Source: Escherichia coli
GTDB lineage: Bacteria > Pseudomonadota > Gammaproteobacteria > Enterobacterales > Enterobacteriaceae
Assembly (NCBI RefSeq): GCF_045037415.1
Contig: NZ_CP173438.1
DNA: 64,000 nt
Strand: one strand, 5' to 3'
Part shown: positions 30,001-31,466 of the stretch, one piece after another
How positions within the stretch are numbered: position 1 is the stretch's first letter
Layout: every line of letters begins with the position of its first letter
Made by a program: the position numbers

Positions 30001-31466
30001 GACAAATAAAATGGTTTGACTCATATTTCACCTCGTTCTTTCATTTTGTTTAAGATTGCTGTGTGTATTTCTGTTGTTTCCATCGTAAGCAGGGCGCACA
30101 TAAAGGGCGTATCCTGAATCATCTCCATAATCCACCCCAGGGCATTTAATTGTTTGTTACTTTCGCCTAAGGCGAGCAAAAAAATCACCCTGACAGGTAC
30201 GGGATCAGGGTCGCCGCCCATATCGGCAAACACTACCGGTTCCGGCAGGATGCCGACGGCAATTGCATTGTGCCTGACATGTTTATGGTCCGTGTGCGGA
30301 ATGGCGACACACGGTGGTTCGGTAGGCAGTCCCGTTGGGTACGTCGCCTCACGTTCCAGTACATGATCGGCAAAATCAGGGACCACCAGTTCGGCGGTAA
30401 CCAACGGTTGCGCTAACTGACGGATGATCTGTTCAACGCTTAACCCTGCCGGAAGTCGTTGAATAAAATTTTCCTGAAACTGTATGCCTTGCATTTTATT
30501 CCTCTTAAAAAAGTGTACTTAACTCACTTCCCGCCGTTGCAGCACGGTGCCAAGATAGTATTTATTTCCTTTTAACCAGACGTTGCCAAACTCAACGGGT
30601 AATCCGCGGGAGAAAAAGACTAACTGCTCCAGATGCAAAACGGGTGCATCTTCACTGATATCTAAAAAATGACCGCGTTCATTACCAATTAATCGCGCGG
30701 CATAGCGACTTTCCGAGTAACGAATTTTTCTTTGCGACAAACTTTCTATTGTTGGAAATAAATTGTGTTGATTAAAATCGATTTCCACGATGCCGGGGCA
30801 TAGCTCAATATTGATACGGTTCTCTATCAGCATCGCTTTTTCATCACCAATTGAACGTAAACGCTCAAGGTAAAGAATATCCTGACCGGGCGTTATTCTT
30901 AATTTCTCTGCCACATAACGATTAGCCGGTTCAATCCGTGACGTAATAACTTCAGTGGTAAAATGTATTTTCTGGCTTTCCAGCGATTCCGCGAATGACA
31001 ATAATCCTTCACCTAACGGATATGCCACGTTCTCTTTTTTGACAAATGTTCCCTTCCCCTGAACCTGAATCAACACGCCTTCTTTTACCAGTTGGGCGAC
31101 CGCTTTTTTAACGGTTCCCCGACTCACTTCCAGCATATCCATAATCTGGTATTCCGAAGGAATGCGATCGTCTTCCACCAGATCCCCGGTATAAATACTT
31201 TCTCTTATCCACTCCACCACTTGTTGATAGAGCGGTATTTGTGACGACTTACTCAATGATTTCATGGCGCGCACCTGAACATTTACAGTTGTCTATGGAC
31301 AATCATGGACAACTTCAAGCGTATAGTAGGTGAACAGGCGAAAAAGAGGATCGAAGCGTCTCACATTTTAGGGGACCAAATCGTGATCAAAAAAATGTGA
31401 CGTGAGTCGATATTTGGCAGGAGTCTACTGCGCCGTCAGGAAATAACGGCGCGTTGGGAGGTGTTA

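Follow-up and report, generated by a model that had tools for sequence, protein, structure and literature searches.

Introduction

The regulator MngR of Escherichia coli represses the PTS operon mngAB together with its own gene. HutC-type regulators of the GntR family recognize sites in which GT and AC mostly stand 4 nt apart, the canonical form being NyGTMTAKACNy (PMC4494728). Among the listed operators, that of the HutC-type FarR consists of 10-bp direct repeats of TGTATTAWTT, and NanR of the FadR subfamily is given as binding three GGTATA direct repeats (PMC4494728). Extra, weaker boxes located 7-12 nt from the site centre have been described for GntR regulators in 23 orthologous groups, four of which are HutC (Suvorova, Korostelev & Gelfand 2015; PMC4494728). 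The operator of NagR is a 14-bp dyad of two 4-bp recognition half-sites with 6 nt between them (NagR paper), and in the NagR-DNA complex Arg48 and Gly69 make base or groove contacts.

Here we analyze a repeat upstream of a HutC-type regulator gene in a 64,000-nt stretch of E. coli DNA (contig NZ_CP173438.1; "the window"), where a seven-gene accessory cassette is found in minus orientation between nikABCDE-nikR and yhhJ/rbbA.

Results

The cassette and its regulator

Annotation of the window, combined with Pfam, gives the following order:

31464-36786, minus strand: nikABCDE-nikR, followed by the cassette (minus strand) and yhhJ/rbbA (plus strand)
30519-31265, minus strand: HutC-subfamily GntR regulator, 248 aa, RefSeq WP_001296489.1, first gene of the operon
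25665-30494, minus strand: the six genes downstream of the regulator in the seven-gene unit, IIA to aldolase
30021-30494, minus strand: PTS IIA
29743-30024, minus strand: PTS IIB
28308-29666, minus strand: PTS IIC (Gat type)
26807-28315, minus strand: FGGY-family kinase
26548-26817, minus strand: HPr
25665-26516, minus strand: class II ketose-bisphosphate aldolase

The assignments of all seven genes are borne out by Pfam. Gene borders within the cassette are either overlaps or gaps of 24-76 nt, and no convincing minus-strand intergenic terminator was found within it; the spacing, the absence of terminators and the single copy of the motif described below fit one autoregulated operon. Directly after the aldolase stop, at the junction between the island and yhhJ, the unit is closed by an element at 25626-25658 (minus strand, GCCGGATGCGGCGTGACGCCTTATCCGGCCTAC), which is REP-like by its resemblance to the REP consensus.

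Of 5426 complete E. coli genomes, 1634-1637 (approximately 30%) have the cassette, O157:H7, O145:H28 and urinary isolates among them, and its range takes in Bacillota and many further Enterobacterales. We considered whether the island is the "vpe" carbohydrate permease locus known from the literature and rejected this, since vpe is found with deoK in another region. NCBIfam offers no specific function for the regulator, the IIC or the kinase, the best equivalog-type scores of the regulator being 100-122 bits against cut-offs of 157-281 with none reached. The aldolase reaches only PRK07998, a model whose name, "class II aldolase", is a generic one. Both the substrate and the regulation of the cassette appear to be uncharacterised, as the sources offer generic names only. 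In the literature searched we found no description, binding, footprint, transcription-start or expression data for the regulator and the motif; a full-text search with the motif strings gave no match, and the motif is absent from the supplementary site lists of PMC4494728.

Judged by its domains the regulator is a true HutC-subfamily GntR protein, containing both an N-terminal GntR winged HTH (PF00392, E 4e-16, residues 12-75) and a C-terminal UTRA domain (PF07702, E 2e-27, residues 98-236). It aligns to the DNA-binding domain of NagR with an E value of 5e-14 and keeps the equivalents of Arg48 and Gly69, while the equivalent of NagR Arg38 is a Tyr here and an Asn in the group of relatives with 66-70% identity. 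The effector domain (residues 79-248, window 30519-31028) is essentially identical to PDB entry 3HFI, a structural-genomics entry of 170 aa labelled "putative regulator" with no function assigned (E 7e-108), and a structure is therefore at hand for ligand-docking or soaking studies. On one ENA contig the regulator (GntR and UTRA) is fused to a PTS IIA domain in a protein of 388 aa (P0016), probably by a frameshift or by read-through of the 24-nt gap.

The repeat is part of a phased array

According to the original prediction a candidate operator with a GTTGTC/GACAAC inverted repeat and a tandem repeat is located just upstream of the regulator start codon. The plus strand at 31288-31313 reads gttgtctatggacaatcatggacaac, at exactly the coordinates first reported. 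Because the regulator is encoded on the minus strand, the reverse complement is the useful reading of the motif:

31288-31313, minus strand: the reported motif, sense strand GTTGTCCATGATTGTCCATAGACAAC, corresponding to boxes 1-3 of the array
31279-31313, minus strand: full predicted operator array, four 4-bp boxes with a 10-bp period and the orientation -> -> <- ->
31289-31302, no strand assigned: 14-bp dyad TTGTCyATrGACAA, boxes 2 and 3, imperfect (C..A) in E. coli

The predicted inverted repeat is present as a perfect 6-bp repeat (31288-31293 and 31308-31313) with a 14-nt spacer, and an inner pairing, GTTGTC-TATG-GACAAT, has arms of only 5 bp (TTGTC/GACAA). The second feature was right in its repetition and wrong in its arrangement: ATGGACAA does occur twice (31295-31302 and 31305-31312), but the copies stand 10 bp apart and are phased rather than strictly tandem. 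The proximity to the start codon also holds, the motif ending 22 nt 5' of the regulator ATG (RefSeq start 31265, minus strand). An in-frame TAG within the motif makes it non-coding for the regulator ORF and excludes a longer ORF.

When the repeats are taken singly they occur in the 64-kb window at about the level of chance, with five matches to the inverted repeat at up to two mismatches against 2.3 expected, and four matches to ATGGACAA against 2.1 expected; a second exact TTGTC-N4-GACAA at 57780 sits inside a CDS and was treated as chance. It is only the combined three-box pattern that is unusual: with exact boxes in any orientation it is unique in the window (0.02 expected), and with one mismatch allowed there is one match against 0.33 expected. 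What lifts the repeat clearly above chance is not the window statistics but the conservation across species to be seen in the alignments below.

From the sequences compared, the element is best described as TTGT/ACAA boxes of 4 bp, separated by CyATrG-like spacers of 6 nt and repeated with a period of 10 bp. The letters of the E. coli array are TTGT(31312-31309)-CCATGA-TTGT(31302-31299)-CCATAG-ACAA(31292-31289)-CTGTAA-ATGT(31282-31279), which in 10-bp units becomes TTGTCCATGA TTGTCCATAG ACAACTGTAA ATGTTCAGGT. The element thus probably extends about 10 nt past the coordinates first reported, to 31279, by means of the fourth box ATGT (31282-31279).

Conservation in Enterobacterales and promoter context

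A scan for orthologues with one genome per species returned 42 loci. From these, alignment A1 was made of 17 non-redundant orthologues (regulator protein identity 84-99%) and the window sequence, i.e. 18 taxa from about 15 genera (Citrobacter, Klebsiella, Enterobacter, Pantoea, Rahnella, Cedecea, Trabulsiella, Mangrovibacter, Izhakiella, Winslowiella and others). At the gene level the identity of the orthologues to the window is 74-96%, with 75-83% for the taxa outside Escherichia and 96% for E. whittamii. The alignment places the motif in the following context:

31323-31328, minus strand: -10-like hexamer TACTAT, TAnnAT conserved, 10 nt upstream of box 1
31272-31276, minus strand: Shine-Dalgarno AGGTG, 6 nt before the ATG at 31265-31263, invariant in the 18 taxa
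31396-31411, minus strand: CRP-like box, in E. coli ATCGA-N6-TCACA with 3 mismatches to TGTGA-N6-TCACA
31361-31365, minus strand: invariant TGTGA half-box preceded by AAA, right half not conserved

Within the motif 20 of 26 columns are invariant (mean approximately 1.88 bits), while the neutral baseline, for which the regulator gene next to it supplied 55 four-fold-degenerate sites, has a mean of 0.51 bits with none of these sites invariant. The spacer from the -10 up to the TGTGA box is scrambled, at 0.05-0.9 bits, and farther upstream the loci can no longer be aligned, indicating that the cassette occupies different genomic neighbourhoods. The original prediction had named a lack of conservation in orthologous loci as grounds for giving it up; what we find is a near-invariant block in 18 loci whose flanks and synonymous sites have turned over. 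The invariant columns seen against this baseline and the scrambled spacer argue that the motif is under purifying selection. The 22 nt between motif and ATG, with 13 invariant columns, are conserved nearly to the level of the motif, which the fourth box helps to explain. Escherichia alleles differ by about 5%, and every substitution is located upstream of the -10. In E. coli O157:H7 strain TR01 a stretch of about 40 nt after the nikR stop, ahead of the promoter region, differs from that of other E. coli, which have a nikR-proximal hairpin-like stretch at this place (alignment A3, columns 28-70), and its promoter and array are untouched.

A perfect outer GTTGTC/GACAAC pair is confined to Escherichia and C. 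amalonaticus, and the 14-bp dyad, the top-scoring symmetric element, varies at two positions that are symmetry mates (alignment columns 187 and 190). Its centre is C..A in E. coli, T..A in six taxa and C..G in K. oxytoca, the latter two forms being perfect palindromes, so that several genera other than Escherichia have a fully symmetric dyad; variants of it are TTGTCTATAGACAA and TTGTCCATGGACAA. Neither the window nor the orthologous loci contain a second copy of the motif.

The motif is positioned between the -10-like TACTAT and the Shine-Dalgarno sequence, and the putative promoter and start were placed from this context. Since a simple sigma-70 consensus scan called no minus-strand promoter here, only the conserved TAnnAT points to the promoter; a good -35 was not found at the regulator promoter. 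A transcription start around 31315-31316 is plausible, with an invariant A at 31315, and from such a start the array would cover roughly +3 to +38. The distal CRP-like box has 0-1 mismatch in most genera and 3 in Escherichia and C. amalonaticus, and it would be centred about 87-88 nt upstream of the start, which is an unusual distance compared with productive positions (-41.5, -61.5, ...). The proximal TGTGA was considered as a class II CRP site at -41.5 and dropped, since its right half has 3-5 mismatches. Between the two TGTGA-type boxes there is a conserved TGATC (31385-31389, minus strand), and the 5-mers TGTGA, TCACA, TGATC, ..., TGTGA recur at intervals of about 11 bp.

The leader contains two short ORFs with no Shine-Dalgarno sequence before them, one of 7 codons at 31283-31306 (ATGATTGTCCATAGACAACTGTAA, minus strand) and one of 6 codons at 31262-31282 (ATGTTCAGGTGCGCGCCATGA, minus strand), the stop of which overlaps the regulator ATG; the ATG of ATGTTCAGGTGCGCGCCATGA is present in 17 of the 18 taxa. 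In a potential hairpin at 31255-31283 (minus strand), AUGUUCAGGU, which includes the Shine-Dalgarno sequence, pairs with the start-codon region and is 99% paired over the 18 taxa; the UA/UG variation is all compatible with pairing, and there is one double change from U-A to C-G (Rahnella sp. AA).

Arrays in distant relatives

The regulator family runs to about 51% identity and into Bacillota, and eleven further loci from distant relatives were added to the comparison. Relatives at 52-62% identity (named Bacillota and further contigs), most of which head the same cassette (GntR, aldolase, IIA, IIB, IIC, FGGY), have 2-5 phased TTGT/ACAA units between a TATAAT-like -10 and the Shine-Dalgarno sequence:

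Clostridium: TTGTACATAG TTGTATATAG ATGTCTATAG TTGTGTACAA, all direct
Enterococcus: TTGTACATGG TTGTCTATAG TTGTCCATGG TCGTGTACAA, all direct
Caldibacillus: TTGTACATAG TTGTCTATAT ACGTTTATAC
Niallia: TTGACTATAG ACAACTATAG ACAA, orientation -> <- <-
L058 (a relative at 57% identity): TTGTACACGG TTGTATATAG ACAACTATAG TTGTACACAT, orientation -> -> <- ->, register and layout as in E. coli

Direct 10-bp units starting with TGT number two in E. coli and 2-4 in Enterococcus, Clostridium, Caldibacillus and the loci L054, L055 and L050. Exact boxes phased at 10, 20 or 30 bp were found in 11 of 14 independent lineages, a count equalled in 0.0006-0.023 of cases by control windows from the same loci; the three lineages without a clear array are L049, L057 and, as far as the promoter of its own regulator is concerned, L050. 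The 66-70% group and several of the Bacillota relatives have no TTGT-N6-ACAA dyad and keep TTGT-N6-TTGT. By this comparison the deeply conserved feature is the 10-bp-phased TTGT direct repeat and not the outer inverted repeat.

The locus L050, from a relative at 62% identity, has a four-unit direct array, TTGTGCTTGG TTGTTTGGTG TTGTTCATGG TTGTTTGTAT (8241-8280), before a separately transcribed PTS IIA gene, and a CRP-like TGTGAGTATTAGCACA precedes it. In the 414 kb of loci this array (two overlapping matches) is the only place away from regulator starts where the three-box pattern is matched, and its position at PTS IIA shows that the element belongs to the promoters of the cassette and not to the regulator coding start as such.

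In a sister group with 62-72% identity (L021-L029 together with L049 and L050) the regulators are found in a rearranged cluster with the order IIC, FGGY kinase and Zn-dependent dehydrogenase, followed by GntR, aldolase, HPr and sometimes a second dehydrogenase, which suggests a related pathway of the polyol type. The promoter of this group has TTGTTCATAC TTGTATACAG and a degenerate third box. In Enterococcus canintestini the first 18 or so codons of the annotated 264-aa protein P0104 coincide with the operator array and the Shine-Dalgarno sequence (L051, 4001-4054); its annotated start appears to be too far upstream, with the likely start about 54 nt further in, and the same error may affect P0099 and P0102 (309-313 aa).

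Discussion

A model for the array, weighed against its alternatives

We consider it likely that the motif is the operator core of the island's HutC-type GntR repressor, and that the four-box phased array at 31279-31313 serves an operon-wide autoregulation. The suggestion that the repeat is a plausible autoregulatory control site for the whole island is in keeping with the conserved block, the HutC nature of the protein, its place as first gene and the single copy of the motif: with the regulator leading a packed seven-gene unit and no second copy to be found, such a site fits. Directly before the array there would be a weak sigma-70 promoter that probably depends on an activator (-10 TACTAT, with the CRP-like box upstream), and the array would reach the Shine-Dalgarno sequence. 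With no inducer present, at least two repressor dimers would cover a single face of the helix, between about +3 and +38, blocking either open-complex formation or promoter escape, and the block would silence the entire operon from GntR through IIA, IIB, IIC, FGGY kinase and HPr to the aldolase, the gene of the repressor itself included. A phosphorylated sugar produced by the PTS or the kinase would then bind the UTRA domain and release the repressor. By analogy, repression through occupation of the initially transcribed region with relief by a sugar phosphate is the most likely mode, as is known of NagR, DasR and further HutC repressors linked to PTS genes. Speaking against the model are the 6-nt separation of GT and AC in the dyad, the Tyr at the position of NagR Arg38, the mixed orientation of the boxes and the three of 14 lineages with no clear array.

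The readings that compete with this model differ in what they make of the symmetry, of the leader transcript and of the identity of the binding protein. A simple palindromic operator for one dimer, where the repressor would contact only the dyad TTGTCCATAGACAA or the outer GTTGTC/GACAAC pair and the remaining TTGT boxes would play no part, would agree with palindromes being the norm for HutC proteins, with the dyad scoring highest among the symmetric elements and with its variable positions being symmetry mates. We find it unlikely nevertheless, since the 18 taxa show no more variation in box 1 (TTGT) and box 4 (ATGT) than in the dyad, the 66-70% group and several Bacillota relatives have TTGT-N6-TTGT direct repeats and no TTGT-N6-ACAA dyad, and the outer repeat is perfect in just Escherichia and C. 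amalonaticus. Another reading ascribes the conservation to an RNA element in the 5' leader, either an inverted-repeat hairpin for mRNA stability or a hairpin sequestering the Shine-Dalgarno sequence and AUG or both, with no protein-binding DNA site. The 62-nt E. coli leader does fold better than its shuffled versions (z -2.4), with one hairpin from the inverted repeat and one pairing the Shine-Dalgarno sequence with the AUG region, so that RNA could account for part of the conservation; the K. oxytoca leader has a z of -1.7, and over the 18 aligned taxa pairing in the two helices stands at 90.6% and 99%, with a small number of compensatory or wobble substitutions. Against this, 13-25 of 500 shuffles equal the observed values, a range that arises without structure, the 81-nt frame has a z of only -0.88, Rfam gave no match, and the loop of hairpin 1 is almost invariant, which is more than a plain hairpin requires. 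In Enterococcus, L058, Caldibacillus and the Raoultella group the leaders do not fold better than their shuffled versions (z from +0.4 to -0.6) and still keep the DNA boxes, and the array in L050 belongs to the promoter of a different gene. Because the shuffle controls are weak and relatives keep the boxes without folding better, we treat RNA structure as something that may act in addition in Enterobacterales but does not account for the motif, and we regard the RNA element as the sole explanation to be very improbable.

Equally improbable in our judgement is that the array is bound by a different host-encoded transcription factor, be it a global or another sugar regulator, in place of the adjacent GntR protein. 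That the GntR protein binds the array is itself a prediction, and the CRP-like boxes point to host factors acting on the promoter; however, the array travels with the regulator gene across genomic neighbourhoods and phyla, a host factor of such specificity common to Enterobacterales and Bacillota is unlikely, and the TTGT/ACAA boxes fit the GT..AC rule of the GntR family (PMC4494728). The last alternative, a chance repeat with no function, draws on the single features being at the level of chance within the window, and it is effectively refuted by a conservation far above the neutral baseline and by the recurrence of the array across phyla, leaving it a negligible probability.

Within the preferred model of an operator for the HutC-type repressor, a symmetric dimer of the NagR type does not account for the mixed orientations of the boxes (-> -> <- -> in E. 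coli, all-direct or -> <- <- in relatives). As a tentative and rather doubtful proposal, the repressor might read TTGT boxes one helical turn apart in almost whatever orientation, with a binding mode unlike that of NagR and DasR, using either independently docking domains or a cooperative head-to-tail oligomer over about 35-40 bp from the start to the ribosome binding site; in Enterobacterales this might be combined with a leader hairpin that sequesters the Shine-Dalgarno sequence and holds translation of the regulator low.

Comparison with known systems

The predicted operator offers a handle for finding the inducer, by reporter fusions or by release of the repressor in vitro, and the inducer could in turn identify the sugar consumed by the accessory pathway. 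As far as the sequences tell, the array would also be a clear case, found across phyla, of a HutC site that departs from the canonical form, with phased boxes and GT-N6-AC, to be placed beside FarR and NagQ. The regulator and its predicted operator are a pair of a known kind, a HutC repressor on a PTS operon, previously uncharacterised and with a somewhat unusual site architecture, and the closest precedents are the listed exceptions FarR and NagQ and the additional half-sites at 7-12 nt from GntR palindromes (PMC4494728).

Among relatives for which a DNA complex has been solved, NagR/YvoA of B. subtilis is the closest, and it has the same two-domain architecture as the cassette regulator. NagR/YvoA and DasR (with its dre operators) repress sugar-PTS genes and are released by sugar phosphates. 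The 4-6-4 layout of the NagR dyad corresponds to boxes 2 and 3 of the array; the NagR sites are single near-palindromes with GT and AC 4 nt apart, whereas here the array is phased with several boxes and the E. coli dyad, in spite of having the GT/AC arm symmetry, has a separation of 6 nt (GT-CCATAG-AC), unlike the canonical 4 nt. An equation of the dyad geometry with that of NagR was accordingly toned down, on account of both this spacing and the missing Arg38 equivalent. FarR/MngR of E. coli is alike in being a local regulator of the HutC type with 10-bp direct repeats starting with TGT, and its role at mngAB and its own gene resembles the one proposed for the cassette regulator. By its NCBIfam scores, far below every equivalog cut-off, the cassette regulator is not an orthologue of FarR/MngR, the unit here is TTGTmyATAG, and at least one box is inverted here so that a dyad is formed. 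Boxes 1 and 4 match the description of the extra half-sites by Suvorova et al., where such boxes are weaker, while the extra boxes here are conserved like the dyad and are in several lineages the sole recognisable feature. NanR is likewise a repressor of the GntR superfamily acting on a repeat array, but subfamily, unit and period all differ, and the likeness is one of analogy only.
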